64,000 bases of DNA. It comes from Geosiphon pyriformis uo1. Its lineage: Eukaryota; Fungi; Glomeromycota. The stretch is taken from contig JAAOMT010000436.1 in the NCBI GenBank assembly GCA_016748015.1, positions 238,703-302,702 on the forward strand, read 5' to 3'. A model generated the notes under the pieces. It did not search any database. It was not told where the DNA came from and saw only the letters and a list, made by a program, of their open reading frames with translations. Within the stretch, counting starts at the first letter, position 1. Every line of letters starts with the position of its first letter. Below are positions 25,671-54,859 of this stretch, piece by piece. The position numbers and the translations under genes were made by a program.

Positions 25671-25683
25671 TTATCCCCTCCTT

Positions 25684-26352: not shown

Positions 26353-26436
26353 TGTTTTAATTTTGACTGCTATTTTGGAATTTTTTGCATGCGTTTTTAT
26401 GGTTGTTAAATCATTTTTGCTGTGATCTAAAATTAA

Positions 26437-27816
26437 TTATTTTTTCAAATAATGTTTAATTAAAACTATTGGTTCTAAATCTTGTGGAATTTGTTCTGGT
26501 AGAATTAAAGGTAATTGTGTTCCAATTCTGAGTGTTTTTGTTGTTATTACTGGTTTACTGTAATAGAATTTTAGCCAGTTACCATGTGCTGCTTTTTTTA
26601 ATATTTTATCATCTAGTCTTAGCTTGTATGCTCTATTTCCAAGTATTTCGTGAATATAAAATGGTCTATCCCACTTGTGATCAAATTTTCCACTCCACTG
26701 TTTTTCCATTTTTGTATGATGCAACAATACTTTATCTCCAATTTTGTAGCTAATTATATTATCTGGTAACTGGTTATCATGTCTCACTTTTTGTTGTTCT
26801 TGTGATTGTTCAATATTTTGTGCTGCTTTTCTTTTTTTGTTTTCTAAAGTTCCTATTAATTCGTATGTTCTTCTAAGTAGTGTTTCTTGGAATGTTGCTT
26901 CCGTGATAGTGTCACTTGGATAAGTTGGGATAGTAAGTTCAACTGGTAATGTGGCTTTTTTTCCATAAACTAGTTCAAACAGTGTGAATTGTGTAGTATC
27001 TTGTTTTACTGTTCTATATGCTAGTAGTACTGCTGGTATGAACAAATTCCATTCTTTTTCATGTTCGTTACTAATTTTCGCCAGTGATTTGCATAATGTG
27101 CGATTAAATCTTTCAACTAATCCATTTGTTTGAGGGTGGTATGGTGATGACAGTGGTCGCTTGATTCCAAATTTTTGGCTAAGTTCTTTTAAGGTGCTGT
27201 TTATAAAGTGTGTGCCCTAATCTGATAGCAATTCTTGTGGACATCCATGTCGGCAAATTAAGTTTTCATGTACGAATTGAGCTACGGAAATAGCATTAGC
27301 TGTTTTAATAGCTCTAGCTTCTGGCCATTTGGTGAGATAGTCCATGGCTATTGCAATATAACGGTTGTTTCTTGTTGTTATTGGTAAGGGTCCAATTAAA
27401 TCAATTTCGATTCTGTCAAATGGCTGTCCAACTTTTATTGGTCTTAATAATTCCGTTGTTTTTGCTCCTCCTCTTCATTGGTATGGGTCACAATTTCTTA
27501 TGTATTGGATTATGTCTGAACTCATTTTTGGCCAATAGTAATGGCTAGTTGCACGTTGAATGGTTGCTGTTTTTCCAAAGTGGCCTGAATGAATATCTGA
27601 GTGCATGTTAAATAAGATAGTTTCTTTTTCATCCGTGGTTATAACTCTTAATAGATTATCTGGATTTTGTCGATTCCAGTAATAAAGTATGTGATTTTGG
27701 ATGAAATAGTGTTTTGTTAATTTTTGGAGCTTAATTAGCTTTTTTACTGGCATTTTTTCCTCTATTTGTAGTGTTTCCAAGTATTGGCTGAGGTTTTTGT
27801 AAAGGTGGTTGTTCAT
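26437..27816 (-). pseudogene. Gypsy-1 integrase, separate ORF starting MNNHLYKNLSQYL
   Basis: HHCC-derived zinc domain, DYLTKWPEA, YHPQTNGLVERFNRTL and a GPY/F module (WDRPFYIHE). No chromodomain is evident. Confidence 0.9.
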
Positions 27817-29678
27817 TGTTGTTGTGACAGGTGGGTTGGTGATTTTTATGTGTGTCTCATTCTTGACAAACAGTCAGCATTAGCATTTTTGGTACCTTCT
27901 TTGTATTTGATAATATAATCGTATGATGCTAACGTTTGTGACCATCTGGCGTATTTTCCTTTTAGCGCTTTCTTGTTATTTAACCAGACCAGACCTCTAT
28001 GATCTGTCGTAATCTCAAAGGGTTGGTACCATAAATATGTGTCAAAGTGAACACAACTCCAGACTACTGCTAAGCATTTAAGTTCATGTGTTGCGTAGTT
28101 TTGTTCTGCTGTACTGAGACTTCTGCTGGCATAAGTGATTACATGTTCTCTTCTATTATCATCTTTTTGTGACAGAATGGTTCCAAGTCCAGTTCCAGAG
28201 ACATCTGTGGCCAAAATGAATTTCTTGTTGAAATTCGGATAGATTATTATTGGTGATTCAATGAGCTTTTGTCTAAGGTACTCAAAAGCTTTTTGTTGTG
28301 CTTCAGTCCATTCAAACTTCACATTTTTAGATAGTAGGTAATTAAGGGGTTTGGTGATGTTTGAAAAGTTTTCTACAAAGCGGCGGTAGTAAGATGTGAG
28401 TCCTAAAAAGCTTCTAACTTCTAAAACGTTTCGAGGTACTGGAAAATTTTTCACTTTGTCTATTTTTGATGGATCTGGTTTTATTCCATCTTTTTCAACT
28501 ACGTGTTCTAAAAATGCTAGCTCATTTTTCCCAAAGAAACATTTTTCTAGATTTAGTTTAAGTCCAGCGTGTCTTAATCTCTCAAAAACTTGTTGTAAAT
28601 GTTGGAGATGATCTGTGAATTTTGCCGAGAAAACATTTGTATCATCCAAGTAGACAACAACGGATTGCCACAGGATTCCGAAGTAAATTACGTCCATTAG
28701 TCTTTGGAATGTCGCGGGAGCATTTGTTAATCCAAATGGCATTACATTGAACTCATAGTTGCCATTTTGTGTTGTGAATGCTGTTTTATGCCTGTCCTTT
28801 GGGTCCATTTCCACTTGCCAGTACCCACTAGTCAAGTCCAGTGTAGAAAACCATTTTGCTCCTCCAAAAATGTCGAAGATTTCGTCAATTAATGGTATTG
28901 GGTATGAGTCTTTGGTTGTTTTGCTGTTTAGTTTGTGATAGTTGATGCAAAATCTAATTTTTCTGTTCTTTTTCTTTACTAAAACAACTGGTGAGGACTA
29001 TGGGCTCATTGATGGTTGTATTATTCCTTTTTCCAACATGCTTTGGACTTCTTCTTTGATAGAATTATGCTCCATTGGTGGGACACAGTAAGCGCATTGT
29101 TTTTCAGGTCTGGCGTCTCCAGTGGGGATTTGGTGTTGAACCAAGTTGGTTCTTCCAAATTCACCATTTCTTGAAAATATATCAGAGTATTTTAAAATTA
29201 ATGCTTTTAATTGTCACTGTTGGTCAGGATCCATTGTTCTAATGTTTAATTTGGCCAATTCTTCTGGCATAAATTGATATAATTCTAACGGTTGTTGCCA
29301 ATCTATTGAAGTGAGTTTACAGTAGAGGGCAATTTCTGGGAAATTTAGAATTTCTTGTGGTGTTGACACGTTTTCTAGCTCCGTTCCGAGGTATCCAATG
29401 ATGGTATCTTCCAGAATGTAAACGGGTTCTTCTGTGGTGTTTGTGATAGGAATTTTTATCCATTGAGCTTTATCAGCTGGAATAAAAAGGTTAGTAAGTC
29501 TTATGAGAAACTGTTGGCAAGTTTCTGGGTAGGGCTCAAATATTAGGTTTTTTTCTTTAATTGTCCTTTTTATTCTTATTTCTGATTTTTCATATGGTAG
29601 GAGCATGATAGACCGCTCATTTTTAATTACTTCACCTTTTTCCTCTATTGTTTCAGTGAAATTCGCTTCAATTCCTTT

Positions 29679-30080
29679 TCCTGTCGATCCGAAACCAAAA
29701 GTTCCTCTCATTGTTTGTGACAATTCCTCACAATTTTCCACTGGCACAAATTTTCCAATTTTTACCAATGGTAGAAAAATTGCTTGTGCAATCTTTTCCT
29801 TAGATTCAATGATATAAGGCTTTTTTGAATTGTTCTGTAGCAAAACCATCAAATTTCCAGTGTATCCAGAGTCAATTACTCCTCCTTGAATGCTTATTCC
29901 TTTTTTCGCAAGGCTTGATTGCAACACCATTTGAACTATTATTCCTGGCGGAATTTCAACTGCTATTTTTAGGTCGATTTTGGTGATGCTCTTGGGTGGT
30001 AACATTGTGGATTGGTCTTCCAGATAATGTAGATCAAATCCGGCGTCGGTTGAATGGGCTCTTTCGGGTATTATTTCTAA
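29679..30080 (-). pseudogene. dut: dUTPase domain in Gypsy-1 between protease and RT
   Basis: All five trimeric dUTPase motifs: DAGFDL, QSSLAKKG (RSS), GVIDSGYTG, KIAQ and RGTFGFGSTG. Confidence 0.95.
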
Positions 30081-32711
30081 GTGCCCATTGTCAAAGTATC
30101 GGATGTCAGTCACCTGTTCTAGGTCAGTATAGGCTACAAATTTTTCTGACTTGGGACTGTCAGATGAGTCTTGTTGATTTATTGATTGATTTTGAGACTG
30201 CTGATTCTCAATTTCCATTTTTTTTTCTAAGTCCCTTTCGTCTTGACACTCTTCACAGCACTGATTTTGGCACAGGATGAGACAGTTTTCACAGAGATAA
30301 GTGTTGATTTGGGTGAGGTATTGTTCTTGCTCTTGTCGAGTGGGGCATAGTTGTTGGTAGTAGTCCTGGAATTCGTCCACTGGGTCGAACATGTTGTAGC
30401 TGGCAACTTCATCGGCTACTTCAGCTGACTCTTTCCAACGTCGTATTTCTTCAGTGGTTCCTCCTTTTACTTTGGCTTGTGTGGTGTTGTACAACTCGTC
30501 CTCATCGTGTGGGTAGTGCTGTAGTCTTTTTAACGCTGCTTCAAATGGCGTTCCTCCTTTTATCCAGTCACAGATGAGGATCGTGTATTGGCAAGTTGCG
30601 TCACATGTTCCTCCTCTGCCTGGTAAGTTGTTCTAGTCACACCCTCTTGGTAATGGTTTTCCACAAGCGAGACACGGTTCCTCATCTCATTTTCCATGTC
30701 TTTCTGAGTAACTGTATTTTTCTTTGTTACAATGGTTACAATAGTAGTGGGTGGGGTTTCTTGGGTCTTCGTCTGGTGCGCTGCACGCAGTCATAGACGA
30801 GAGTTTCTTCTTGCAAACCAAGCATTCTAGCTTTGGTCTGCGTCGCTGGTGGTTTCTTTGTGAACTTACCTGGTTCCATTCGGATCTTTCTTCACTGGTC
30901 CATGTTGGTACGGCTGGTAGTCCTGTTCTTTGGTCATCAGCCCAAGAGAGCTGATAGGTTTCGATGGCTGGTAGTGCTGGATTTTCCTCAAATTCAAAGG
31001 TAAGTCTTTGGTTGGCACTGGGTTTTTGGAAGTGGCCACAGGTGGCTGGAATTTTGGCCTGGTGGCCATTATAATTGATCAGAAGCTCTTGGGTGGTCCA
31101 GTCTAGGGTGGCATTGGCTTTTGTTAGCCAGTCATTCCCTACTAACGCTTGATATTGTGTAGCATCCATTACTAATATTTTTATAGGTATTATTATGCCG
31201 TTAATTTCGAAAGGGAATGAGTTGATTTCGCCATAAGGCAGCTTTGTACTTCTATCGGCTGTTATAATTTGGGACATCACGACACGATCAACTTTGAAAC
31301 CCAGTTGGTTTACTAGTTGAAGCGTTACGATGCTTCCAGCGGATCCGCTGTTTAAGATAAGTTTGATTGGGATATTGTTTACAGTGGCTTCCATATACAT
31401 AGCAGTGATTGGGCGTTTTTTGTCCAATGCTACTCCACTAAACATAGCCTCGTTTTCCTCTAATTCAAAAGGAAAAATAGCTGCGAGACTGCTATCTTCG
31501 GTGGCAACTGCTGGTGGTATTGTCTGGCTCAATTTGAAAAAATTCTTGGTTCTGTTTATGTTTCTACTGTCATTGTTTCCGATGATCAGATTTTCTGGTA
31601 TATTAAGATAAGTTTGTTGATAATTTTGGTAGTTTGGATTGGTTTGCTGATTGGTTCTGGCGCAGTTTGGATTCCTCTGGACCAACACATTCTGGTTCCA
31701 CATGGGCTGATTTTGGGCCTTGGGACGCCAATTTGGGTTGGCTATCATGGACTGTTGCTGGTAAGCTCCTTGATTTTGATACGTGGTGGGATATTGGTGT
31801 GGTATTGGCGTGTACTGGTTTCTGGGCATTTGGAGTGGTGCATAGTAATTATTTTCACATGCTTCCTGTATCATTCGCGTTCAATATTGACTAATCAAAT
31901 GTCCTACGCATTTGCAAAAATAGCAGGTGCGCGTTTCTGTTCTGAATTCCTGGCGTGACGAGTGATTATTTTGACTGTCACTGACTTCCTGGCTGCGTCT
32001 TTGGGGTGGTTGGTATGTATTTTTTTTTGGATCCGGGATGAGGTAACTTTCTATTTTCTTAGAGAGTTCCTCCTCTAATCAGGTTACTCTTTTCTCTAAT
32101 GTTTCTGTTTTATTTTCCTCCATTACTATGTTAACTATTTGACTATGATTAGCTTCTTTCTCAGCCGATTCAAGGGCTCTGGCGAGCATAACAGCTTCTG
32201 GTAAGGAATTAGGGTGGGCAGGGCATACTCTTCTTAAAATGCTGCTTTTTAATCCTCTAATAAACTGATTTAAAACCTGAGGATTAGTGTAGTATCTTTG
32301 TTCAATTGCTTCAATCTGATGGCGAATTTGATTGAATCGAGCAAGATATTGGGTGACAGTTTCACCAGTATTTTGCTTGATAGTATTGAATTTGTTCTGT
32401 AGTTGGATTACGGCATTTGGGTTGCTAAAATACTCCAGGAGTGCATTTTTAAATTCGGCAAAGCTCGTGGGTTTTGTTTCTAGGCTTTGATACCACGAGT
32501 TGGCTGTGCCTTTCAGGAAGAAAGGTAATGTTTGAATTGCTCTTTGGTCATTCCAGTTATTTGCCTGGATGGCTTTTTGTGTTTCTCTGAGCTATGTGTG
32601 CATGTCCGTTTCTTCTTCCTCTCCTGAGAAATCTGTTAGTCTTGTAATGTATGGTGTGGTTATTTCGTTGCCGTTTTCTGCTAGTGGGTTTATTGGTCTA
32701 AGAGGAGGTGG

Positions 32712-33579
32712 TGTTATGATTTAAAAATTTAGCAAAAAGAATCATAAAAATAATACAAACTATTCAATCATAATATAACACAGTAATAATCTTAGAAAGG
32801 TAATGATTAACATAGTAGCAAACACCATTTCGCAATAGTGGCAAGCACCAGTTCACAATAGCAGCCAACACCAACTGGTGATAGCAGCAAACACCAGGTT
32901 GAAATATCAAAAAAAAAGTATTTTCTTGTAGAACTACAAACATGTATATATACAGTAGTTTTAATATTGGGAAATAAAAAAATCAAGTAATAAAAATCAT
33001 AACTTATCAAGCAACAGATCCAATTTTATCTAATAAACTCCACTTTAAATCATACTTTCAAATTAAATATCCCAAGAAACCTTTAAAAATCAAAAAGAAA
33101 TGAAAAAGAATATTTAAAACAGAACTATCACAACCCAAAGTATTAAGAAACTTACTTGTATTATTTATTGAATGAAACTATCATTCATCAACTGAATCCC
33201 TTGGAAGAATAATTCTTGATCAAAATTATTCACGTTGTTACTAATTGATAAAAGCTTTATTGTGAGAATTAGAAAAGTGCTAAAGACCATTAACATTCTG
33301 TGTTTCTAGATTAGAGAAATACATCAGGCAATTGCAAGGATAGCCTCAGAGAAGACCCCAGACAGTGGGTAGATTTCAGTTCAGCCTCTGAGAAGGAGTA
33401 CATAAACACACACAACAATTAAGAATTAAAGAATAACTTACATCACAACAGTAAAAAGAAAGCCTTCAGTGTAACAGTGACATTATCACACAAATAGAAT
33501 TGAGGAACTCACAAAAGACTGATTGCAATTAAAGTGGGATATCAGCAATTAAATATAACAAGAAAACCATCCCGTAACA
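32712..33579 (+). repeat. Solo LTR of the Gypsy-1 family inserted in opposite orientation within gag
   Basis: Reverse complement of the Gypsy-1 LTR, TG..CA ends, TSD GTGG (32708-32711 / 33580-33583). Confidence 0.93.
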
Positions 33580-34495
33580 GTGGGATGATATTTTTTTGAG
33601 TGTTCCTAAAGGTGGCTTCCCTTATATCCAGTTCTTTCTCTTGATTATGAGTTTCTTGGTTTCTGGACTGGCTGCTTGTTCCAGTGACTGGTCTTGTGAT
33701 TGTTTCTTTGCTGGTCTCTTTTTCGGATTCTGATTCAGACTCCTCTTCATGGTTTTCAAACCCGTTCTAAATTTTGGCTGAAAAAGAGGGTTTTGGAATA
33801 GTGATGAATATCCTCCTGTAATTGGTATGTTTCTCCAGTTACATTGTTTAATTTTATCTGTATAACTAGGAGTTCTTGGTGTTTGTGGAGTTGATGTTGA
33901 TAATGATGCAGCTCCTAATGGAATTTGTATCTTATTTTCTGGTGAAAAATAGTATGATTTATCTTCTGGTGAATAAATACGTTGTTTCTTTATTGATTAA
34001 ATGACAGTTTTCTTTGGCGTTTGAGCTGGTGTTCCTAGTTTTTGCTGGTTACTTTCCTGATTAGTTTCTAAATTTTCTTTGGTTTTGTTGGTGCGTTCTC
34101 TAGTGTTTCCTGTGGATATTGGAAAATTTTCATTGGCGTATTGCTCAATTTCTTGATGGATTTTGACAATAGTTGCGGCTATTACTGCTACTTCTTTTGT
34201 AGTGTATTGTAATAATTCTCTATACAATCTAAGTTTTGTGTCGTGTGGCTCTTCTTCTTTTCCTATATGATAATTTATTCTGGCATTGATATAATAAGTG
34301 AGGGCAGATTCTGCTGGACAACACCCTTCTGGTAATCCAAGATCACTTTGATTTTGTGTGTAAATAGCATGGCAGAATTCAAGAACAGTAAGATTAGAGG
34401 TTTTTGTTGCCACTTTTGTCTTTTTCTTTTTAGCAATGAATTATTGCTAATTATTATTTCCTTTTTGATTTTCTTTTCTCGTAGGGTTTACCAAA

Positions 34496-35353
34496 TATTA
34501 CAGGATAATTTTCTTGTTATATTTAATTGCTGATATCCCATTTTAATTGCAATCAGTTTTTCGTGAGTTCTTCAATTCTATTTGTGTGATAATGTCACTG
34601 TTACACTGAAGGCTTTCTTTTTACTGTTGCGATGTAAGTTATTCTTCGATTGTTGTGTGTGTTTATGTACTCCTTCTTAGAGGCTGAACTAAAATCTACT
34701 CACTGTCTGAGGTCTTCTCTGAGGCTATCTTTGCAATTGCCTGATGTGTTTCTCTAATCTAGAAACACAGAATGTTAATGGTCTTTAGCACTTTTCTAAT
34801 TCTTACAATAAAGCTTTTATCAATTAGTAACAATGTGAATAATCTTGATCAAGGATTATTCTTCCAAGGGATTCAGTTGATGAATGATAGTTTCATTCAA
34901 TAAATAATACAAGTAAGTTTCTTAATACTTTGGGTTGTGATAATTTAGTTTTAAATATTCTTTTTCATTTCTTTTTGATTTAAAGGTTTCTTGGGATATT
35001 TAATTTGAAAGTATGATTTAAAGTAAAGTTTGTTGGATAAAATTGGATCTATTGCTTGATAAGTTATGATTTTTATTACTTGATTGATTATTTCCCAATA
35101 TTAAAACTACTGTATATATATATGTTTGTAGTTCTACAAGAAAATACTTTCTTTTTGATATTTCAACCTGGTGTTTGCTGCTATCACCAGTTGGTGTTGG
35201 CTGCTATTGTGAACTGGTGCTTGCCACTATAGTGAGATGGTGTTTGCTACTATGTTAATCATTACCTTTCTAAGATTATTACTGTGCTATATTATAATTG
35301 AATAGTTTGTATTATTTTTATGATTCTTTTTGCTAAATTCTTAAACCGTAACA
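34496..35353 (-). repeat. Gypsy-1 5' LTR (858 bp)
   Basis: Direct repeat of 25056-25670 with an adjacent PBS at about 34478-34493. Confidence 0.95.
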
Positions 35354-38300
35354 CTGGTTTGATCTTTCAGTTGCTTTTATTAATATGATGGCTCCCGTCT
35401 CTGTTACATTTTCTTCTGTTGGTGGAGTTGTCCCTCAAAATATTCTGGATTCGATTGAATTTGATTTGACTTGTGGTTGTCTGCTTGATGTTAGTTCTGA
35501 TAGTATTTCAGTATTTACTGATGATTCCTTGGCTGGTTTGAGTACTGTTAGCATGCAGGCTGGTGCAGCCGTTTTCTTTGATGGTGTTGATTTGGGTTTG
35601 GATGTTGTAGTTTCTGGTTTGGTGTCTTCTACTATGGTGGAATTGCAGGCTATTGCTTTGGCTCTTGAGTGTGTTCCTCTTTCCAGTTCTATTTATTTGT
35701 TCTCTAACAGTCAGGCAGCTTTGGATGCATGCAGATCTGAGCTGAGTCTAGTGGTTCTGGACTTTCAAAATCAATGCTGATTGAAATGCCATCATATTTC
35801 TAACTTGATTTGTAATAAGAATTTGGATGTCTCTTGGTTTAAAGTCAAAGGACATTTTGGTGTTGTGGATAATAAGTGGGCAGATGCTCTTGCTGTGGCT
35901 GCTTCAACGTCCGACCTTTTTTTTTCTTCATGTTTGACTGAGTCCTATATTTTGGTGGATGGTATAGCCGTTTCTGGAAATTCTAGATATTTTGTTTGTG
36001 ATATTTTCCATTGTGTGCATCATACTAAATGGGAGATTGGCTCTGGTTCTAAAATCTTGGTCTCCAGTTTGCATAAAAACATAGACTGGTGTAGGTCATC
36101 ATTCATGTGGCATCCTGATAAGCACATGGCCACTGATTTCACTGGTAAACGTTCTGCTGGTGCATGTACTTACTTTATGAAAGCTTTACATTATCAGCTG
36201 CCTATGGCTGTTCATAAATGCCTTTATAGTAGGTCTTATCCCAGCATTTTGTGCCTGTTTTGTGGTGGAGTCAAATTTTCTGATCATATTTTCTCATGTG
36301 GCTTTGATACTGCTATTCACGCCCAGCTGTTGGACACATACGCAGCTATCTGGGGAGCCCTCCCTGGTTTATCTCAGTCATTGTCCCGGCTTATACAACT
36401 TATGCTCTCTTGTGCCTCTGATGCCTTAGTGTGTTCGGCGTTTTGTAAGGGTTTTATGTTCAAACTTTTGTTTTCAGGAAGTGGTTTCAGTTTTTGAAAA
36501 CTCCAAAATTGCTTGTTGTAAGATGGTGGAATTTGTAAGAAATTTCTGTCTTGCTTTTAGAGACGAGGTGTGGTTGGTTTGTGTGAGTCACTGCACTTTG
36601 ATGGAGAAGTGTGGCCTGATTCCTGGTAATGGTTTGATTCCTAATCTGGTGCATGGCCTTCCTTTGGTTTTTTCTGCTGGGGTGATAAAACTGTTGGGTA
36701 TTGTGGAGGCTTTTGGCATTTACTTTGGCTTTCGCACATTCTGTTTATTTTTTTCAGGCATTGGGGATTCTGTATTAGTTGTTATAAATGTTTAGTGTTG
36801 TTCTGATTGGCCTGAGTGGCTGGTCATGTGTAAAAAATGCATGATTCACACCTAGTTTAGATCTCTTATGATGTATTGTTTTAGGTAGTGTTTGGACTTC
36901 ACTCATTAAACAAATAAAAATAAAATAAAAAGTGATTTAATTTTAAGAAAATAACAGTTTTTTTTTGGCTTATATAATTTTTATTATAATAATATGTTTT
37001 TTTCTTTCTTTTAAACATTTTTTGAAAAAAAGATAAATTAATTCTAAAATTGTTAATACTTAAATAGTAATTTCTATTAAAAAATTCTTTATTTTAAATA
37101 TTAATTTTTTAGTAGTTAAAAGTAAATTAACAATGACCAAAGTACAAGTTATCAGAAAAATTTTCTCAAATATGAATGGTTTTAAAAAGTCATTATTTTC
37201 TTAAAATTTAAAGAAATTATCTAATTTATATATTTAAAAAAATTCCAAAACAAGTAGTTTAATTGATTAGTAAGAATAAAATTATAATAAATAATATTAT
37301 AAAATAATTTTTTTTGTATATTAAATATTAATATTTTGTTTTAATTACAATCAATTTTTTATGAATTCCTTGATTTTATTTGTGTAATAATATTAATATT
37401 ATACTAAAAACTATTTTTTTAATATTGTAATATAAGTTATTTCTTAATTTTTAATTGTCATATATATTTATATATATTTTTCTAAAAACTGAATTAAAAT
37501 TTACTTATTGTTTTGGAATTTTTTTTGAAGCTATCTTTGTAATTAACTAATGTGTTTTTTTAATTTAAAAATATAAAATGTTAATATTCATTAATATATT
37601 TTTTTAATTTTTATAATAAAGCTTCTATTTTTTTTTTAACGTTTTACAAGTGAGATCTAAACACTACCTAATACAATACATCATACAAATAATCTAAACT
37701 AGGTGTCAATTATGTTTTTTCTATATGTGATCAGTCACTTAAGCTAATCAGAACAACACTAAGCACCTATATATACTAAAATTGAGTTTTCAATATCCGA
37801 AAAAAATAAACAAGATCTACACAAACTAAAACCAATACCAAGCACTTTAACAATGCCAAGTAATTTAACTATATTAGTAAAAAACATTGAAGACAATCCA
37901 AAAACCAAAACTAATATTGAATCATTATATGGTATTAACTCATTTTTTTCTATAAAGACATGATGTTTAACTTGAACTAATCAAACCTTATTTCTAAAAA
38001 CAAGACAGAAGTTTTGCACAAAATCTACAATTTTTTGATATGCGACTACAAAACTCTTAAAGACAGAAACAGTCTTCTAAAACCAATTACTAAGGACAAA
38101 ACTCTTATAAAAAGCTGTATATACTACAGCATCTAAAGCATAGGATTTCATCAACTAAAACACACATAAAAAAGAATAAAAATAATCAGAAAGCACTCTC
38201 TAAGTATTTGCATATATGTTGTTACTGGAGGTTTTTGGTCTCTTTTCTGTAATGTTGTTGATACTTATTTGCTGTGAATTCACGTTTTCAGGAAGTAGTT

Positions 38301-39145
38301 GAACCTCCAATAACTGAATTTATCTTCAAATTATCTTCTATAATTTGAACTTGCTGGGCTTATGAGTGGAATGGCCAATTCTATGCCAGTTGCTTTATGT
38401 AGTTACATTGTAGTAAACGTCAACTCTTTCCCAGGAATTGCTTGTCTGGAAGCTCACTAAAAATGTGTAGTTACTTTGCTGTGAAAGTCAACTCTTCTAC
38501 AGGAATCTTGTCTGTAGGCTACCCTAATGATTGTAATAAGAAAAGAAACAAAAAATAAAAGAAGTGTAAAAGAAATAAGATTTTATCAAGAGAAATGTTT
38601 TCTATCCAGACCTGGAGTCACTAACAGTTTACTGAAATTGGTAGCTAATCAATTTCGAAATGTTAGTTGGTTTTTGGGGATTTTTCAAGAACAATAATTA
38701 AAAAATTTGGTTTTTCAAATTATTTGGTATTTATTTCTTTTTGTGTGTATAGAAATGGTTCTAAGTGATAAATCTAAAGTAAGATACATTTTCTCGAAGA
38801 GAAAAGCTCTTCTTTTATACAACTTGTTATAACACTATTCTATGAACTTGAACTTTGCTATTTTCTACAATTTTGCTGAACTAAAGATACATTTCGGCGA
38901 ACTATTAGATATTTTGGTGAATTATTAATTATTTCGGCAAATTTCTACAAATTTTGGCAAACTTCTGAATATTACATAGTTTGGGGTATTGCATGATTGA
39001 TCATCGCAATTAGGTTACATTTGTGTTGTGTACAATTTGGGTTATTAATTAAATGATAATTTCAAACATTTTTGCTAATGTAATAAGTGATTATTTGATG
39101 ATAATATATGTTAATTAATGATAGGAATTATAAGATAATTTCATG

Positions 39146-39874
39146 CTAAATAATATCTCTAATTTCATCTGGTAACATAACCTCCTTCTTAAGACTGAGC
39201 TTTGTCAAAGTCCAAGTACTGTCTGTTATTTCCAAATAATAATCCAAAATTATTGAAGAAATTTGGTCTGAAAATTGTTGAAATTTTAGTTCTGTGAGCT
39301 TTTCAATATATTGAATCTTCAAAGGTTGAAAAATTGAGTTTTGCAGTACGTTTTTACAGGTGTGGAATAGGTCATAAAGTCTAAGAGCAGCTCTAAGCCT
39401 GTAGCGACTGTTTGTTGATCCAGCTGTTGTCTTGAATTTGTTGTGGAGTTGTTTCTGAATAGCTTCTTTTGTGAGGTTTGCTGTTGTAAGTTCTAGTTTC
39501 CATTCGTAGAGTGTTTTTTCAATGTGAAAATATCTATAGATTGGAGAATATTCAGTGTTTTCCTCATTAAGACACAGTTGAAGTTTTTGTTGAATTGTAG
39601 TATTTGGTGAAATACTAATCAGAGTGAGCATTAGGTTTTCTCTTAAAGCAAGCTTTAAAAGTTCTGGCAGGTAAATTCCAGTATAACTTCTTGTGTTCTT
39701 TTTATATGGGTGATATTTTTGTGAATTTGGGGCTAAATTTGTAACTACTTCTGTTTGAGTATAATTTATGTGGTTTCCAGTAACAGTAATAGATAATTTA
39801 GGTATTGTTTTTAAAGCTAACATTAGTTTTTGGAATAATTGTTGAATGTTTTGAGGAATAGTTATTATACGCAA
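39146..39874 (-). CDS. Gypsy-2 ORF3 (242 aa open), unknown function, env position
   Basis: Uninterrupted ORF between integrase and PPT, homologous to Gypsy-1 ORF3 (IxIPxNI, LxITV, YFHIEKTL, RLYDLF, IEKLTELKFQ). The start ATG has probably mutated to ATA. Confidence 0.8.
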   Translation of the reverse strand: MRIITIPQNIQQLFQKLMLALKTIPKLSITVTGNHINYTQTEVVTNLAPNSQKYHPYKKNTRSYTGIYLPELLKLALRENLMLTLISISPNTTIQQKLQLCLNEENTEYSPIYRYFHIEKTLYEWKLELTTANLTKEAIQKQLHNKFKTTAGSTNSRYRLRAALRLYDLFHTCKNVLQNSIFQPLKIQYIEKLTELKFQQFSDQISSIILDYYLEITDSTWTLTKLSLKKEVMLPDEIRDII

Positions 39875-39984
39875 TTGAAAAAAAAAATAAAAAATTATTT
39901 TTGGTGTATGGGTTTTTATGTTATTTTTGTTTTGTTTTTGTGAGATTGTTTCTAAATTATAAGAGAATAACTAGTAAAATTAAA

Positions 39985-41370
39985 TTAAGTGTTCAGTTCA
40001 GAAGGTTGTTCAATGACAATTATTGGTTCTAAGTTTCAGGGAATATCTTCGGGACTGACCAAAGGGGAATGTGTACCAATTTGTGGAATTAATGGTTCAG
40101 AATTGTTTCTAAAATGATAGTGTTTCAAATGATCTCCATGTGCAATTTTTGCTAGGATTTTGTCATCAAGTCTTAGCTTGTATGATCCGTTGTCTAGGAC
40201 TTCATGGATAAAGAATGGTCCATCCTATTTATTTTCAAATTTTCCACTCCATTGTTTTTCAGCTTTAGTTCTGTGTAAGAGAACTTTGTTTCCAATTTTA
40301 AATTCATTGGTGACTGAAGGTAATTTGTCATCATGCCATTTTTTTTGTTGAGCTTGGAAGTGTTCAATATGGGTGGCTGCTATTCGTCGTTTTCCTTTCA
40401 ATGTGCTAAGCAGAGTATAGGCTCTTCACTAAAGCATTTCTTGGAAATTGTTTTCATCAATCAGTTGTGCTGGGTATGTTTCCACTGTGAAACTAATTGG
40501 TAATGTTGTCATCCTTCCATAAGTTAAATCAAATGGTGTGTGTTTTGTGATATCTTGTTTTAATGTCCTATATGCTAGTAACACTGATGGAATAAAGAGA
40601 TCCTATTCTTGCTCAAAATCGGTTAAGACTTTGGCTAATGACTCACACAATGTTCTGTTAAAATGTTCTACAAGTCCATTTGTTTGTGGATAGTAGGGTG
40701 AAAACAGAGGTCTTTTGATATTGAATTGTTCATAAATTTCTTGTATTAGGTTGTTCACAAAGTGTGTTTCCTGATCAGATAAAAGTTCAATTGGACATCC
40801 GTGTCTACAAATGATGTCTTCATAGATGAAATTTGCTACTGATTTCACATCTGCTCATTGAATGGCTCTGGCTTCAGGCCATTTAGTAAGATAGTCTATA
40901 GCTACTACAATATAATGGTTTTCTTAAGTGGTAATAGATAGTGGTCTGACTAAATCGATACCAACTCTGTCAAAAGGCTGTCCAACTTTGATTGGATTTA
41001 AAGATTCTGTAGGGCGAGTTTCTCCTCTTCTTTGACAACTATCACAAGATTCAACATATTCGTGAATGTCTTTTCTCATTCGAGGCCAAAAGTAGTATTC
41101 TGGTGTTCTTTGGGTGGTGCTATCTTTTCCGAAGTGTGCTGATGAAGGATCTGAGTGCATGTTGTATAAAATGGTCTCTTTTTCCGGTTCTTGTATTAAT
41201 CTGAGTGGTTTGGTTGGGTTTTTGAAATTTCGATGATAGATAATGTTGTTGTGTAGAAAATATTGTTTGGCTTGTTGTTGTAACCAATGTTTTTTGTCTG
41301 GGGACCAATCTGTTGGGATTGTTAATGTCTCCAAATATTGTTTGAGATTGTTGTAGTTTTCGGGGTTTAT
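39985..41370 (-). pseudogene. Gypsy-2 integrase, separate ORF (ATG>ATA, (M)NPENYNNLKQYL)
   Basis: MH..AHFG..CDSCQRRG, DYLTKWPEA, QTNGLVEHFNRTL and GPFFIHEV motifs. Confidence 0.88.
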
Positions 41371-41420
41371 TGTTTGTTGTTTTGATGCTGTTAATTCAAA
41401 TGGGTGTTGATTTTTGTTTT

Positions 41421-44400
41421 TTAATCTTGCCTCATTCTTGAGAGACAATTAATGTTGGTGTGGAGTTTTCCTGGTTTGTGGTGTATGATGTATTGGTAAT
41501 TAGCTAAAAATCCTGTCCATCAGGTTTGTTTTGTGTTCAGCTGGGTGTTTTTGTTTTGAAGCCATTTAAGTTCAATATTATCAGTGATAATATCAAATTT
41601 TTTGGGTCTGAGGTAAAGGTTGAAGTGATGTAGGATCCAGATTACTGCTGCGGTTTCTAATTCTGTTACAGGGTAGTTCTTTTTGGCTGGCTTTAATGTT
41701 CTACTTGTATAAGCAATTACTCGCTCATTTCCATTGTCATCTAACTGTGATAGGATGGCACCAAAAGCAGTATAAGAAGCGTCAGTTGCTAACCGGAATT
41801 GGTTGCTAAAGTCTGAGTAGGCAAGAATTGGAGCTGTTGTGAGTTTTTTCTTAAGTATCTCGAAGGCATTTTGGTGTTCTTTTGTCTATTTGTATTTGAC
41901 ATTTTTAGTAGTGAGCTGGTTGAGAGGTTTTGCAATTTCTGAGAATTCTTTGATGAATTTTCAGTAATAGGATGTTAATCCAATAAATCTTCTTAATTCT
42001 GTGGTATTTTGTGGAGTCTTGAAGTTTTTGACAGTACTGATTTTTTTGGGGTCTGGTTTAATTCCATCTTTGCTAACAATGTGACCAAGAAAAGCTAAAC
42101 TTGTTTTTCTGAAGTAGCATTTTTCAATGTTTAGTTTCAATCCTGCTTTCCGTAATCGTTGAAAAACTTCTCGTAGGTGAATTAAATGTAGCTCGAAAGA
42201 TGGTAAATAAACATTAGTGTTATCAAGATAAACTACTACTGATTTCCAAAGGAGGCCTTTGTAAACAACATCCATGAGTCTTTGGAATGTTGCTGGTGCA
42301 TTGCATAATCCGAAAGGCATTACATTGAACTCGTAATTTCTTCCTTGAGTGGTGAATGCTGTTTTGGGGTGGTCTTTGGGATCCATAGCAACTTGTCAGT
42401 ATCCACTCTCTAAATCTAATATTGAAAAGTATTTGGACTTTCCAAGGACATCCAACATGTCATCAATTCGGAAAAGAGGGTAGACATCCCCAATAGTGAC
42501 ACTGTTGAGTTGTCGGTAATCAACACAAAATCGTATCTTTCCATTTTTCTTTTTAACTAGGACCACAGATGAGACCCATGGGCTTATTGATGGTTGAATA
42601 AGCCCATTGTTAAGCATCCGTTGTACTTCTTCTTGGATAAATTGGTGACTTTCTGGGGCGACTTGGTAGGCTTGTTGTCGCCTTAGTTTGGCATCTCCTG
42701 TATAGATTTGGTGTTGAACCAAATCAGTTCTTCCTAAGTCATTGTTGTTTTTGGTGAAGATGTCAGCAAATTCTGCAATTAGCTCTTTGAGCTGGGTCTG
42801 TTGTTGTGGTTCAAGTTGTCCCATGTTGATTCGAGATAGTTTTTTCATGACAATATGGTAGTTTTCAGAGCTAGGATTTGGGTTGATTTTTGGTAGTGAA
42901 TGTTCAATAATTTCAGGAAAATCAGGAACTGTTTGGGGTAATTCTTGTTAAAATATATTACTGTGAATAACTCCAATTTCTAAATTATTTAATAAAATTA
43001 TGGAGTAATTATTGGGGTTGTAAAAAGTAACTCGGACTTTCTTTGTTCCTTCTGGAATATAAATGTTTGGGATCGAAATATTATGTTCCAAGCAGACTTG
43101 TTCATTGGACTCAAAAATTTGTTGTGTGGTTGTTGGCTTTGTACAAGTGTAGATTTCCGGATGTTCTCCAAAGGGTAAGATGGTAATCGGTTGTGGAAGT
43201 CTGAGAATCTGGTGGGATTTGTTCTGTGTATTAAGAGCTATATTAACTGGAACTGTGAATCATCCAGTTGAACCAAAACCTTGAGTTCCTCTATCACTTT
43301 TTCCTAATTGTTTTCTTTGATTGACTAGTTGCAAACCCGAAATGTTAATTAAGGGTAGGTAAATAGCTTGGGCAATTTTTTCAGCATGTTTGATCTTAAA
43401 TGGTTTGTCAGTTTCATTTTGAAACATTACTGTTATGTTTCCAGTATATCCAGCATCAATTATTCCTCCTCTGACATTGATTCTTTTGCTTGCCAGAGAG
43501 GACCAGGAGGCAATTTGAACCATTGCTCCTGGTGGGATTTCGAGTGCAATTTTGAGGTTGATTTTTGTGAGAGATTTGGGTTTGAAAACAAGAGTATTCT
43601 TGCCTGGATATCTTAGGTCATATCCAGCATCAATTTCGTGTGCTTTTTCAGGTTTTATTCCTTGTCTGTTGTTGTTAAGGTATTTAAGTTGTAAGGCAGG
43701 CTGATTTTCAATAAGGTAGATGGGTGTTGTTTTAATTTCTTCCATTTCTTCAGGTTCTCCAAATTCAATTTTATTCTTATCATTTTCGCTGGGTAAAGAG
43801 ATACTAAGAGCATAGCATTCAGGACACCATTGTTCATCGCAAGGGATAATGCATTCTTCATATAGCCTAATGTTCATTTGCTCTAATCATTGAATTTAAG
43901 CTTCTTGGGTCGGGTAGGTGTGACTTGCAATTTGGTAGTAGACTTCTACTTTATCTTCGTAATCGAATCCAGCCAATTCCATAGTGTATTCAATATATTC
44001 TGCTTCCTTCATTTAACAAACATCTTCTTGGGTAGCTCCATTAATTAATGCCATTGCTAAGTCGAAAATCATCTCAGCATCATGAGAGTAGTGATAAAGT
44101 TTGTTGAGAGCACTGTTGTATGCTGCATTAAAGGGTGTTCCTCTTTTTACTTTTTCTGAAATTGATAAAGCATATTGGCAGGTCTGATTGCAGATGCCTC
44201 TTCTCATTGCTACATCAATCCAATTGCATTCTTCCAGTAGCATATCTCCACAAGTCAAACAAGAGGTGTTGTCCCATTTTTTACTTCTTTTTATTAGATG
44301 GCCCCATCGCTCTCTGTGACAAGTCTTGCAGTAATAACAAGTATGATTCTCATATTCTTCTTCAGGTGAAATGCAGACTCTCATTGACGATAGTTTCTTG

Positions 44401-47045
44401 TGGCAGTTCTTACATTTAAGGGGAATATAGGGGCGTTGTTTTCTTGGTTCAGGTTTTGAGTAAGGTATATTCCATTCAGAGGTTTCAAGTTTAGTGTGTG
44501 GGATAAAATGTTCTTGTTCTGTTTCATCAGCCCAGTTGGACATTGATCCAAGAGCCATGAATATTTCGATTATTGGTTTTTCTTCTTCTGGTTCAAATTC
44601 AAAAGCTGGGGCTTTTTCAGAGCATTTGTTGAATGTACCACAAATGGCAGGTATCCAGGCGTGTTGTCCTTGGTAGGAGATTGTTAACTCTTGTGTTTCC
44701 CAATTCAGATTAGCATTGGCTTTTTGAAGCCAATCATTTCCGACAAGAGCTTGGTACTGGGGTGCGTCCATTATAAGAACTTTAACTGGAATGGTGATTC
44801 CATCAAGAGTGAATGGAAAATTGTCAATTTTTCCTACTGGGGTCTTTTTTATGCCATCGGCAGTGACAATTACTGTTTGAGCTGGTTGGTCGACATTTTT
44901 TTTCAACTGTTGTATTAACTGGTAGGTAATAATGCTTCCGGCGAATTCACTGTCTAGGATTAAGCAAATTGGCTTTCCTTTTACTTCAGCTTCTGTGTAC
45001 ATTGCAGTGATGGCTTTTTGTTCATTAGCTGCTGCATTGCTAAGCAAGAATGGTGATTCATTTGCTTCAAATTCAAAAGGAAAAATATCAGAAAGATTGG
45101 CGTTTTCAGCAATTCGGGCTGGTGGAATAGTGGTGTGGTTATAAGAAGAGTTTCGTTGTTGTTGTGCTACAGCTCTACCTTCCGAGAGTGCAGTATGGTG
45201 AAAATCCTGTTCTTCTGGCATTGTTAAATAATTGGGTTGAGTGTGGTAATAATTGGGTCTTGGTTGAGTGGTATTTCGGGGAACCAATTGGTTGTTCGAA
45301 CTGATTCTACTGTTGTTTACTTGGTATCGGTTTTGTGGTGTAAATTGATTTTGTGTAATCAGTCTTTGAGCAGGTACTTAATAAAGTTGTGTGGGTGGTT
45401 GTTGGTATTGCTGTTGGATTGATTGTGGAGTGGGCTAATAATAGTTATTTTGGTATTGGGGTCTTGGTGAATAGTAAGCTGGTGGTGATGGTTGATAATA
45501 AGATTGCTGTGGTGGAGAATAATGTTGATTACCCCTATTTTGTTGGTCTCGTTGCAGCTTTCTGCAATCTCTTTTTCAGTGGCCAGAGATTCCACAGTAA
45601 TAACAATTCTGGGGCTGGTTATTGGAAAGTGGTGCAAAGTTATTTTGATTTCGTCTTTGGGGTGGTTAATATCTTTGGGGTTGTTGTTGTTGTTGATTGG
45701 TAAAATAATTTTTGACCTTCTTTGTAAGTTGGTCAATTTTTTCCTCAGCTGCTGAGCTGGTTTCTCCAATTGCCAAATTTACAAGTTTTGTACAATTGGC
45801 TTCTTCCATGGCCATTTCGTATCTTTTTACATGCTGTATGACAGAGTTTAAATCTTCTGGCGTGTGTGAGTGAACCTTTTTAATTAGTTTATCTTTTAGA
45901 CCAGCAATAAATTGATCCAAGATTTGAGCATTGAAATAATAATCGTTTGTCTCGAGTTGGTGAATCCGTTTGAGAAGTTTGTTGAATTTCCCAATATAAG
46001 TCATAACGGATTCGGAGAGTTCTTGTTTGATATTTCAAAAACAATTGCGAAGAGTGATGGAGGTATTATTGTTGGTGAACTGTTCAAGAAAGGCTGCTTT
46101 AAAAGCATTCCAATCATTGAATGAGGCGGCAAGGTTTTCAAACCATTCTCCTGCTGTTCCTTTAAGAAAGTAGGGAATTGTTCTTAACATTCTGGTAGTG
46201 TTCCATCCATTTGCATCTTCAGTTTTAGTAACTTGGTTGAGCCATTCTTGGGAACTGGTCTCAATATCTTCTCCATTGAATTCAGAGATTTTTGTGATGT
46301 ATGTTGTCATTTCATTTTCTTCATTTTTACTGTCTATTGGTTCTTCTTTGGTTATTTCAGAGTTGTTTTCTTTATTTGCTGCTGTCTCAGAGTGTTCACT
46401 TTGATTTTCAGCTAGAAAATCAAGGAGATTGGAACTAGTTTGAAGAGGTTCTTGTTGTCTAATGGGACTTCTGAGTGATGTAAAATCTTCTGGTCTTGCA
46501 AATCAATTCAAGAGTGAATTAGGTGTTTGTGCTTGTGCAAGTGAAGCTGGAAAATGTGTAATAGTAAGTGGAAGTTTTGAGCTGGTTCCTTGTTCAGGTG
46601 TTTGTAGATGTTTGAATGATATTTTAGGAGTATTGGGTGTTGTGTGAACAGGTTGGTTATCTTTTTGTCTTTTGTTGCTACTGGTTTCAGGTTCAGATTC
46701 GAGTTCAAAGGCAAATTGTGCATTTGCAGGATATTTTTCTTCACAGAATTGAATGATATTATAATCGAGTTCCTCAAAATAAGTAGCGCAAGCTTCAGCA
46801 CTAATGTTTTCTGATTCAGTGTTGGAATAGTGTAGTATGTTCTCAAGAAAATCTCTTTTAACTGTTGTAATGTTATAGTTCTCAAAGAGGTAGTCATTGA
46901 TTCGATTTTCGATGTATTGAAAAAGTGTTTTCTTGAAAGCTATGATTCTGTCGCGTATTTCAAATCATTGTTTGCAGTGTGTGTAAATCGATTGATAGTA
47001 CTCTAAGGTTGTGATGTCTGAGGCGGTCGCCACTTTGAATTTGTT
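41421..47045 (-). pseudogene. Gypsy-2 gag-PR-Cys-rich-dUTPase-RT-RNaseH polyprotein
   Basis: Capsid, LILDSEFAGS protease, dUTPase at about 43261-43660 (DAGYDL, SSLASK, IIDAGYTG, KIAQ, RGTQGFGSTG), RT and RNase H ending CLSRMRQD*. Confidence 0.92.
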
Positions 47046-50000
47046 GCTGTGTTATTTTTGTGGGAGAGCACCAAATGTTACTGGAGGTTTTTGGTCTTTT
47101 TTCTGTAATGTTCTTAATACTTATTTGCTGTGAATTCACATTTTTAGGAAGTAGTTGAACCTCCAATAACTGAATTTATCTTCAAATTATCTCCTATAAT
47201 TTGAACTTACTGGACTTATGAGTGGAATGGCCCGTACCAGTTGCTTTATGTAGTTATGTTGTAGTAAACGTCAACTCTTTCCTAAGAATTGCTCATCTGA
47301 AAGCTCACTAAAAATGTGTAGTTACTTTGCTGTAAAAGTCAACTCTTCTACAGGAATCTTGTCTGTAGGCTACCCTAATGATTGTAATAAAAAAAGAAAC
47401 GAAAAATAAAAGAAGTATAAAAGAAATAGGATTTTATCAAGGGAAATGTTTTCTATCCAGGCCTGGAGTCACTAACAGTTTACTGAAATTGGTAGCTAAT
47501 CAATTTCGAAATGTTAGTTGGTTTTTGGGGATTTTCCAAGGGCAATAATTAAAAAATTTGGTTTTTCAAATTATTTGGTATTTATTTCTTTTTGTGTGTG
47601 TAGAAATGGTTCTAAGTGATAAATCTAAAGTAAGATACATTTCCTCAAAGAGAGAAGCTTTTCTTTTATACAACTTGTTATAACACTATTCTATGAACTT
47701 GAACTTTGCTATTTTCTACAATTTTGCTGAACTAAAGATACATTTCGGCGAACTATTAGATATTTCAGTGAACTATCAATTATTTTGGCAAATTTCTACA
47801 AATTTCAGTGAACTTCTGAATGTTACATAGTTTGGGGTATTGCATGATTGATCATCGCAATTAGGTTACATTTGTGTTGTATACAATTTGGGTTATTAAT
47901 TAAATGATAATTTCGGACATTTTTGCTAATATAATAAGTGATCATTTGACGATAATATATGCTAATTAATGATAGGAATTATAAAATAATTTCATGCTAA
48001 ATAATATCTCTAATTTTGTCTGGTAACAATGTCTAACAATTAATGCTAAACAAAATTATTGGCCATATAAGAAAAAACATAATCTGAAATCTCAATACCA
48101 CCACAATACAAACATAACACACTAGGATAATGCTTATTATATAAGTATTTTTAAACAGCAATAGGCAGTTAATAGTACAAAGCTTTTATAAAGTATATAT
48201 AAGTATTAGCAGTATATTTACTAGTAAAACCAGTAGCCATATGCAAATCAGAATGCCACACTATAAATAAACCAAGCCAGTTGACATCTAAAAACAAACT
48301 ACTAATTAGAACTTTAAAACCAGAACCAACTTTCCAATGTGTACAATAAATAAACCAAAATATCTTATAAATAAAATATCTAAAGTTATCAGAAACAATA
48401 TTACTCTCAGCCATAATATAATAGTCTTTCAATTAAAGAGGAAGGTACCAAAAAGAAAAAAAAGCAGTGTCAGTAAATGCATCAATACATTTGTTACTTA
48501 AGACACCTGAATGATTCTTCACTTTGTACCAGCTAACATTTAACTTCTTTTCATAAATAACATTTACAATGTGCCAATGTTTAATCCAACACCAATTCTA
48601 AAATTTGAACACTCCAAATCCAACTCTGATTTGCATATATCTAAAGCAGCCTGATTGTCTGTAAAAAGGCAAACCAAATTAAGAAAGAAGACACACTTAA
48701 AAGCCAATGCAATAATCTACAATTCTGCCAAAGTAGAAGACATCAAACTAAACATTCTGACACCCAAACCCAAGTTTATGTCCTTAAAAAAACCATTACA
48801 CTAGTCTTTATGTTAACCTTCTCCAAGTTTTTCAAAGATCCATCTGTGTAGACTAAAAGACTATTAGCATCAACACCCAATAAGCAGTCACAAGCTATTT
48901 CAAATTTACAAGACTCAAAAATATTCAAAAAATCAATAGCATTTAGAAAAAGAGGGCATGTAGAAGAGAAATTCACACTATTAAAAAAGTTAACAGAAAG
49001 CTCAAACTATTTAGGAACAGGGCCATATGAGTCCAATCTCTTTCAATACTTGAAGATTTTCCAATTGAAATAGCACTATTTTTATTGTAAAGCTGGTTTA
49101 TAAAAGCAATATTATACTATTGAAAAAAAGAAAAAAACTTAAAAAATTTAGACTTGCCAAGAACAATTAACATGGAGATTCCACCATAATAACAAAAAAA
49201 ATTGTTTATAAGGTTACTTAAAGACAAATTACACTCAAAAAAAATTTGAATCATAGCTGTTAAAAAATTATTAGAAACACTGACCTTAATACAAACTGGA
49301 AAAACCAAAAGATAAAACAGATACCAAGACAGAACTTGCAAATCATGAGACTTGTATAAGAATAAATGACTTAAAATTTCAACAGAGTTTACAAAACATA
49401 CAACAAAAGCCACTTTGCTTTCAGCCTGAATTTGCTCAAAAGTCTTCAAACCATACAATAAAGAATGGTAGAATGCATTATTAGAAAAATCAAGAGACAG
49501 ACTGAACTTCAATTTTAAGCTTTTGCAAATTAAAGCATCCTATTTATTACATACACCAATAGGAACAAAGCTAAATTGCATTTTGTAGCTAACAATAAGC
49601 TGGAAAACTGCTAACACCAAATACAAAAACTGCTTATTAGAAATGGTCTTTCTTAAAAAAGATTGGCAAAAAACCAGATATCCAAATGTGTTTTAGCCAA
49701 GTTGTGTTTTAACAAACTCTCAATAGATAAAAAAATACCTAAATAGCAATAGAAATAAGTGAATTGCTGATTAATAAAAAAGAGCATTCAACTCTGTAAT
49801 TGATTGGAATGACCACTATTTTGTCATTATTAATAGAAATGTTATTGATCTAAAAAAAATTACTAGCAATATTGAGAATGTATTGGGTAGTAGTTTGGCT
49901 GTTACCAATCTAGATTATATTATTGGCAAAAGCACCAGCAGCAAGAAAAAATATTAGTCTGACTTGAGATTTTGAATGACCAATCTTGGCAATAAAATAA

Positions 50001-54586: not shown

Positions 54587-54859
54587 CAGAATTTAGTTCC
54601 GATTTCGATTCCCATTTGTTTTCATTGATTGGCTTTTCTTCAAATATATGACACATGGGAGTGGATTGTAACTACATCCTAATATTCTGACTTAGGGCTG
54701 TCAGGTGAGTTTTGCTGATTTATTGGTACTGTGAGAATTAGGTTTTATTGGGCTATCAGAGGTAAGTTTCCTTGTATGATAACAGAGTTTGGAATTTATC
54801 AGACTTTGAATGTTTGTGTTTTTGAATAATTCCCAGAGTTTGAATTGCTAGAAGTTTAA

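Follow-up and report, generated by a model that had tools for sequence, protein, structure and literature searches.

What is the third open reading frame that lies between pol and the 3' LTR in a group of retrotransposons of Geosiphon pyriformis, and what does it do for the elements that carry it? We approached this question through one 64,000-nucleotide stretch of the genome (the window), in which the frame, here called ORF3, occurs in Gypsy-2 and in two related elements, Gypsy-1 (25056-35354) and E (3' part, from 58428). Gypsy-2 is a full-length but dead Ty3/Gypsy element on the minus strand, with LTRs bounded by TG..CA, a target duplication, a PBS-like sequence, a polypurine tract (PPT), and gag followed by protease, RT, RNase H and integrase. 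The main features are as follows.

38220-39177, minus strand: 3' LTR of Gypsy-2, 93.9% identical to the 5' LTR, with a 4-bp target duplication, ATGT
39146-39865, minus strand: ORF3 of Gypsy-2, 239 codons uninterrupted by a stop, with ATA in place of a start codon and the last 10 codons in the LTR
39181-39190, minus strand: PPT of Gypsy-2, within ORF3, assigned from sequence
39866-39985, minus strand: A/T-rich spacer of Gypsy-2, 120 nt, 18% G+C, from the pol stop to ORF3
39986-46964, minus strand: gag-pol of Gypsy-2, interrupted by stop codons and encoding Gag, protease, dUTPase, RT and integrase
47060-47073, minus strand: PBS-like sequence of Gypsy-2 (TGG...), 2 nt past the 5' LTR, assigned from sequence
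47076-48025, minus strand: 5' LTR of Gypsy-2
25056-25670, minus strand: 3' LTR of Gypsy-1, containing a 20-N gap
25684-26352, minus strand: ORF3 of Gypsy-1, stops at codons 21, 136 and 183, ending at the PPT
34498-35354, minus strand: 5' LTR of Gypsy-1, in which a 23-bp unit is repeated in tandem at 35192-35253
58428-59294, minus strand: 3' LTR of E, in which a 40-bp unit is repeated in tandem at 59098-59224
59308-59933, minus strand: ORF3 of E, decayed, with many stops and one frame change near the end

Several observations concern the surroundings of these features. A dUTPase sits between protease and RT in Gypsy-1 (29217-30632) as well as in Gypsy-2 (43263-43886), an arrangement that one report calls rare in retrotransposons, with basidiomycetes and bdelloids as the cases given (PMC5408684). 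The integrase of Gypsy-2 ends about 35 residues past its SH3-like part, and no chromodomain was seen in it. The gap in the Gypsy-1 3' LTR (25573-25592) lies in the assembly, and that LTR is about 240 nt shorter than its 5' counterpart; an inverted solo LTR of the same family, 94% identical to the Gypsy-1 5' LTR, sits inside the element at 32711-33579. A non-autonomous element, G (53259-56317), has LTRs akin to those of E and an interior of 27-bp and 87-bp tandem repeats, and retains a PBS-like site, a PPT and the motif that precedes it. Primer-binding sequences differ between Gypsy-2 (47060-47073), Gypsy-1 (about 34480-34495) and G (about 55520-55539). Three related, decayed LINE-like elements, 66-68% identical and with RT and weak endonuclease matches, occupy 12046-18900, 19900-25056 and 48065-52550, and a ribosomal protein S3-type frame (KH_2 and Ribosomal_S3_C) lies at 8902-9543, in the sole part of the window without CpG loss.

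Gypsy-1, Gypsy-2, E and a metagenomic contig, L001, all carry ORF3 as a separate open reading frame at a conserved position, after pol and before the 3' LTR, which is the slot that the envelope gene takes in retroviruses; a stop codon and a spacer of 84-316 nt part it from pol in all three elements measured. The preliminary description of this locus had placed homologous frames between integrase and PPT in the three window elements, and we find them there. It had also called the Gypsy-2 frame open, which is right as to internal stops but not as to the start codon, since ATA stands where the relatives begin and the first in-frame ATG is codon 15. The stop-free frame runs from 39970 to 39146 on the minus strand, the portion homologous to relatives being 39865 to 39146; this portion is 90% identical to G. 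pyriformis proteins, and the N-terminus MTIPQNIQ occurs in 33 of 121 related proteins. The decayed copy in E is still recognizable (E=2e-14 to a relative, 1e-44 with an ORF3 profile). Likeness between the Gypsy-2 and Gypsy-1 copies is at the protein level and frame-specific: the two ORF frames score 144, against at most 56 for the 35 other frame pairs and at most 64 for 200 shuffles, and blastn found no shared stretch above 26 nt. The earlier statement that the copies are divergent as DNA yet alignable as protein is thus borne out. The motifs said to be shared are looser than claimed: MIxIPxNI is exact in Gypsy-1 only, [C/R]Y[YF]xLGxxL is present in Gypsy-1 and E but not in the window copy of Gypsy-2, and YRI/RLY..F is missing from the decayed E copy.

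A protein search returned 182 relatives; among the 120 listed, 119 are hypothetical proteins of G. pyriformis, and the remaining one is encoded by the window itself. When 1.84 billion representatives were searched with a profile, 68 matched at E<=0.001, and the 31 whose source was looked up comprise 28 from G. pyriformis and three metagenome proteins; a further search added five more metagenome proteins. Altogether ORF3, a protein of about 230 aa, falls into nine lineages that are mostly 14-45% identical; ten representatives show 14-44% between lineages, with subfamilies A and B as the exception at 66%. The contig L001 carries RT-RNase H-integrase, a 316-nt spacer, an intact 230-aa ORF3, a PPT and an LTR, and the ORF3 layout therefore exists outside the Geosiphon genome. 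The integrase of L001 has one stop (L001:1564-1566) while its ORF3 is intact. The most divergent group (P0185 and P0194-P0197) may have a context outside LTR elements. Viral contigs yielded neither a relative nor a junction pattern. Many G. pyriformis gene models (P0018, P0032, P0052, P0136, P0170, P0175 and P0186 among them) join pieces of ORF3 to Gag, integrase or other transposon sequence; these probably reflect false splicing and are not evidence of real fusions.

The substitution pattern points to purifying selection, as the preliminary description had proposed along with a dN/dS check. Against a divergent copy (run X2), positions 39221-39418 show 21 synonymous and 15 replacement differences where 10.5 synonymous are expected from the transition/transversion mix, giving a dN/dS of about 0.30 (p=2.6e-4), a value well below 1 that is uncorrected for multiple hits and CpG context and stands without a pol control. 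These 36 listed differences, among 52 in total on that contig, fall 11/4/21 by codon position (p=0.002). In a second comparison (run X1, 40 of 41 rows), variants shared among copies are 13 synonymous to 12 replacement (dN/dS about 0.43, p=0.03, uncorrected) and the private changes of the window copy are 7 to 8 (about 0.61, p=0.24), with no difference between the two classes (Fisher p=1.0). Between subfamilies A (48 copies) and B (31), which are 64% identical among these near-full proteins, the 43 fixed differences are more conservative than the 168 singletons (p=0.013); this set comprises 79 of 129 proteins, of 200-245 aa, with 8 chimeric or self entries removed by name.

Regarding inheritance, L001 and P0162 fall with subfamilies A and B in a tree of ORF3 (33 of 35 rows; support 1.0), and the E, F and C lineages group with Gypsy-1 (support 0.999). 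The integrase quartet (Gypsy-1,E)(Gypsy-2,L001), with bootstrap 100 and 20 against 7 and 5 informative sites of 386, shows the split seen in the ORF3 tree. In this small test of four elements, the sequences favour inheritance of ORF3 with pol over repeated capture. In the same comparison the integrases are 50-61% identical, compared with about 21-37% for the ORF3s.

One part of the reading frame has to be set apart from the protein. The preliminary description treated DFDxAQ[SY] with its stop, abutting the PPT, as a conserved protein ending, which the comparison does not support: identical bases recur in two reading frames and also in an element where they code for nothing. The motif occurs in the window at these two places.

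39189-39212, minus strand: conserved DNA motif just upstream of the PPT (reading DFDxAQS and a stop elsewhere), in another frame in Gypsy-2
54127-54150, minus strand: PPT-adjacent DNA motif in the non-autonomous element G, which has no ORF3 match

We regard this tail as a DNA motif because 15 identical bases, GGAGCTCAATCTTGA, are common to Gypsy-1 and L001 and read in different frames; they are the best DNA match between the two genes. The out-of-frame ending noted earlier for Gypsy-2 is indeed in another frame, but this is not damage, since a whole clade reads on. One clade of ORF3 stops just before the PPT with D[FL]xGAQ[YFS] as its ending, whereas the other reads through the PPT into the LTR as ELSLEEEIMLP, which is how the gene regularly ends in subfamilies A and B and in the metagenomic P0162 and P0163. 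The claim that G keeps the ending was correct for the tail only, and the ORF3 profile found nothing further in G. No hairpin beyond shuffles was detected at the motif in any of five elements (z 0.85 to -0.57), and no description of a pre-PPT motif was found by title or abstract start in the open-licence literature. The motif may be a cis signal for plus-strand priming or RNA handling next to the PPT; what looked like a peptide motif there turns out to be a DNA signal.

The protein itself appears soluble and mainly helical, in keeping with the earlier picture of a non-env accessory ORF; hydropathy and the structural model both point this way. The top 19-residue Kyte-Doolittle mean is 1.5 and none of 79 near-full copies exceeds 1.6, so that, on hydropathy, the claim of no transmembrane segment or signal peptide stands. 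ORF3 has one or two cysteines, an amphipathic N-terminus and a mildly basic pI of 7.1-9.3. A model of P0163 from a 29-row alignment (pLDDT 79, pTM 0.65) consists of a helix at 7-20, a hairpin at 24-38, a disordered basic linker at 41-51 and a helical bundle (54-219) with helices at 54-66, 82-95, 100-119, 126-141 and 146-160, two short helices, and a helix at 185-219. Across the lineages, conservation is seen in a Y-x-[YH]-[YF]-x-[IL]-G helix and in a K-T-N turn, after which comes a helix carrying R/K at 149, 151 and 155 and F160. A basic residue is in the majority in 5-8 of nine lineages at P0163 positions 49, 52, 62, 131, 143, 149, 151, 155 and 182, and N145 is kept in eight of nine; no invariant acidic catalytic set or serine residues were found across lineages. 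A homodimer prediction, run without an alignment, scored 0.01 and speaks neither for nor against a dimer.

The low-confidence linker (pLDDT <50) contains [RKH]x(2-5)PY in six of nine lineages, where 0.02-0.05 per protein is expected by chance; the motif search was post hoc, E and P0195 lack it, and F could not be scored. Within the subfamilies, only 27 of the 48 copies of A and 10 of the 31 of B still have it, and the PY copies share one ancestor. PY nuclear signals end in this consensus and their basic class is read by yeast Kap104 (PMC2408616). The linker fits the basic PY-NLS consensus within a disordered, basic stretch of the model, and nuclear import is predicted on this sequence and structural basis.

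Searches for a known identity were largely negative. Pfam gave no family at cut-off in scans of 8 and 29 proteins, including no env family, and PHROGs gave none (best E 0.0012, to a family of unknown function, in one of seven proteins). A PDB sequence search found no match below E=1, and Foldseek found none at E<=0.001 against the PDB, with either the first model (pLDDT 48) or the second, or against viral structures. VIA-align over 48,161 chains reached a best Z of 5.4, with none at 8 or above, and a second look reached 5.6. The fold searches barely covered the N-terminal module, and neither a new fold nor distinctness from any family follows from them. Residues 95-159 of the P0163 model superpose on a SigmaF fragment over its full 57 residues (Z 4.4, rmsd 2.5), a fragment that we take to be a three-helix HTH-type region; the match is within helical-bundle noise. 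A helical domain common in Glomeromycota gene models may have a similar spacing of aromatic and basic residues. The top language-model match of P0163 is a 98-member, all-eukaryote cluster, mostly from Mucoromycota and 190 aa long (0.94, 176 shared features), which was not returned for P0003; the cluster may represent a further lineage of ORF3 or a broader family that exists beyond these elements.

Some candidate identities were rejected. A Pol C-terminal domain (Chromo or SH3_Tf2-1) does not fit the stop and spacer between pol and ORF3 in the three elements, and the SH3 match sits in pol itself. The N-terminal domain of DUF1016 (PF17761) shares with ORF3 a short YxxIG helix and a later R..Y helix, and appeared at Pfam E 0.04-0.12 in two of 29 members and at 0.85 in Atlas; its score is 12.9 bits against a cut-off of 32.8, and hhalign gives a probability of 0.85% over 16 columns where 40 shuffles reach up to 3.7% (77 YhcG-like proteins). 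Neither a DEDDy exonuclease nor a GDSL esterase family was seen in Pfam, and their catalytic residues are not kept across lineages. A dN/dS near 1, a Pol C-terminal domain and an env match had been named beforehand as counting against an accessory gene, and none of the three was found.

Candidate targets for a DNA-binding protein are present in the LTRs, as listed here for Gypsy-2.

38892-38961, no strand assigned: four copies of the 10-bp near-palindrome TTTYRGYRAA, spaced exactly 20 bp apart within the 3' LTR, as possible binding sites
47743-47812, no strand assigned: the matching four-copy TTTYRGYRAA array in the 5' LTR

Lineage-specific short repeats occur in all four LTRs examined, those of Gypsy-2, Gypsy-1 (23-bp unit), E (40-bp unit) and L001, in a search that was post hoc. 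The L001 LTR contains TTTGCCCT five times, a count reached by 0 of 30 shuffles, and one exact TGCCCTWR copy also lies in the L001 spacer before ORF3 and one in pol. An unbiased 8-mer test was clear in one of the four LTRs (L001), the observed counts being reached by 2 of 30 shuffles for Gypsy-2, 2 of 30 for E and 9 of 30 for Gypsy-1; on the L001 spacer 28 of 30 shuffles reach the observed count. Across the window the Gypsy-2 near-palindrome occurs 16 times against 8.75 expected (3 of 100 shuffles). The ratio of observed to expected CpG is 0.11-0.54 in the elements and 0.90 in the gene-bearing part of the window. This depletion is in line with the TE methylation documented in Rhizophagus (10.1101/2021.03.30.436303).

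Taken as the best explanation, tentatively and somewhat short of an even chance, the ORF3 product may be a DNA-binding protein of the nucleus that activates its own LTR or keeps it from being silenced, in the manner of VANC or Tas. A nuclear, nucleic-acid-related role of some kind is likely, and the nuclear, nucleic-acid-binding branch of the earlier suggestions receives indirect support. ORF3 would then be an accessory gene passed on together with pol within one group of Ty3/Gypsy retrotransposons, those that bear a dUTPase, and possibly expressed from its own promoter in the A/T-rich spacer because it is separated from pol by 84-316 nt. The protein would be imported by Kap104/transportin through the basic PY-type signal in the linker and would contact DNA through the (G)KTN turn and two helices, 126-141 and 146-160, the latter with conserved basic residues. 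The LTR repeats would be its targets, binding would switch on transcription or hold off host silencing, and CpG methylation would be the pressure that ORF3 answers. Protein and target repeats may drift together, which would explain an ORF3 divergence about twice that of integrase. Against this reading, short repeats are widespread in U3 and could serve factors of the host; the proteins are no more than mildly basic; and every copy in the window is CpG-decayed, so that any protection was not lasting. A bolder version seems rather unlikely as a whole: a sequence-specific regulator of unnamed fold, matched family by family to its own LTR repeats, whose co-evolving private on-switches beat CpG silencing and propelled the spread of LTRs through about 41% of the Geosiphon genome, for which the LTR share is given as 41.2% (PMC11952901).

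We consider two alternatives, each of them unlikely in our estimate. The protein could help integration by binding integrase or the cDNA complex, carrying it into the nucleus or tethering it to a chromatin mark in place of the missing chromodomain. The integrases of Gypsy-1, Gypsy-2 and L001 do end shortly past the SH3-like part with no chromodomain match, and ORF3 is co-inherited with integrase and has a nuclear-import-like motif; however, an ORF3 identity of mostly 14-45%, compared with 50-61% for integrase, is fast divergence for a fixed partner, the lineage-specific LTR repeats are left unexplained, and many Ty3/Gypsy elements lack both a chromodomain and an ORF3. Alternatively, ORF3 might coat or escort element RNA during export, packaging, shielding from small RNAs or transport in coenocytic hyphae, possibly at the pre-PPT motif, which is conserved beside the PPT and also kept in the non-autonomous G. 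PY signals are described as typical of RNA-binding cargo (PMC9860449), AM fungi are reported to produce TE-derived small RNAs (10.1101/2021.03.30.436303), and the second language-model match is a closterovirus coat-protein cluster (Atlas 0.93, 156 of 256 features). Yet the recognition score, 2186, is below the 2300 mark, the coat cluster was not returned for P0003, no coat family appears at E<=1 among the 25 Pfam families listed for 29 members, and the PPT motif forms no hairpin beyond shuffles in any of the five elements. The movement factor suggested earlier gains no more than this weak likeness to closterovirus coat proteins (PF01785).

Quite unlikely, in our view, is a protein-level antagonist or copy-number brake that binds some host protein involved in restriction or silencing, or holds down the element encoding it, with no contact to nucleic acid. 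Its mildly basic charge and its fast divergence with a retained fold, typical of accessory TE proteins, would suit this role, and for such proteins dN/dS is reported to be higher, and predicted host contacts more numerous, than for core enzymes (PMC13547354). On the other hand, the conserved basic positions cluster on two helices and the linker, and no host partner is indicated. That ORF3 is a neutral passenger or remnant with no present function is very improbable and largely refuted already: all three window copies are damaged and G has lost the frame, but dN/dS is about 0.3, the ORF3 tree is congruent with integrase, and full-length frames persist in lineages 20-37% identical, including those of other organisms' elements. 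An envelope or fusogen-like protein acting at membranes is scarcely credible. Position between pol and the 3' LTR is its sole support, set against the hydropathy of the 79 copies (no 19-mer above 1.6), the one or two cysteines, the amphipathic N-terminus and Pfam scans of 8 and 29 proteins with no fusion glycoprotein or env family.

The reading of ORF3 as a regulator of its own LTR draws on two known systems, to which we liken it by analogy without filing it as a member of either. In foamy viruses the 3' accessory region overlaps U3. Their Tas/Bel1 protein, encoded by an accessory gene near the 3' end, is a nuclear DNA binder that acts on the LTR and an internal promoter, the likeness proposed for ORF3 (PMC4929722, PMC8670036, PMC13220597). 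Unlike ORF3, Tas belongs to env-bearing vertebrate retroviruses; no sequence likeness was found to ORF3, for which an internal promoter is only inferred. VANC, from the Mutator-like VANDAL DNA transposons, resembles ORF3 as an element-encoded, fast-evolving accessory protein in a CpG-methylating host (PMC5735166, PMC13547354), and VANDAL families have short repeats of their own in non-coding DNA, the VANC targets often being tandem repeats that vary between related elements (PMC5735166); the LTR repeats described above would be the candidate counterpart. In contrast, VANC resides in eudicot DNA transposons and has a reported MAIN-like origin, and its binding and demethylation have been shown, whereas those of ORF3 would follow by analogy (PMC5735166, PMC13547354). 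Compared with a VANC/MAIN-type domain, ORF3 gave no sequence match, no Pfam family at cut-off and no clear fold match.

Non-env third genes of LTR retrotransposons are already known in plants and rotifers, mostly without function (PMC5408684, PMC11728184). The bdelloid elements Juno, Vesta and TelKA resemble those described here in an ORF3 slot after pol, a dUTPase between protease and RT and no chromodomain, and bdelloid ORF3s of 210-230 aa occur; these are DEDDy exonucleases, GDSL esterases or transmembrane proteins gained independently (PMC5408684). The Geosiphon ORF3, in contrast, appears soluble, matches neither enzyme family and seems inherited with integrase. The aORFs of plant Athila, Tat and Tekay elements are likewise conserved orphans of unknown function, some with predicted nuclear signals; they differ from ORF3 in their hosts and have no sequence match to it, and several are antisense, 5' of gag or largely disordered (PMC11728184). 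In the open-licence literature on LTR-element ORF3s and on Geosiphon or Glomeromycota elements, we found no description of this fungal ORF3 family.

In summary, well over a hundred 'hypothetical' gene models of G. pyriformis are copies of a transposon ORF3. The protein is compact and its structure well modelled, nature supplies nine variants of it, and candidate target repeats are at hand; the question of how fungal retrotransposons evade methylation therefore becomes testable by swaps of protein and LTR.
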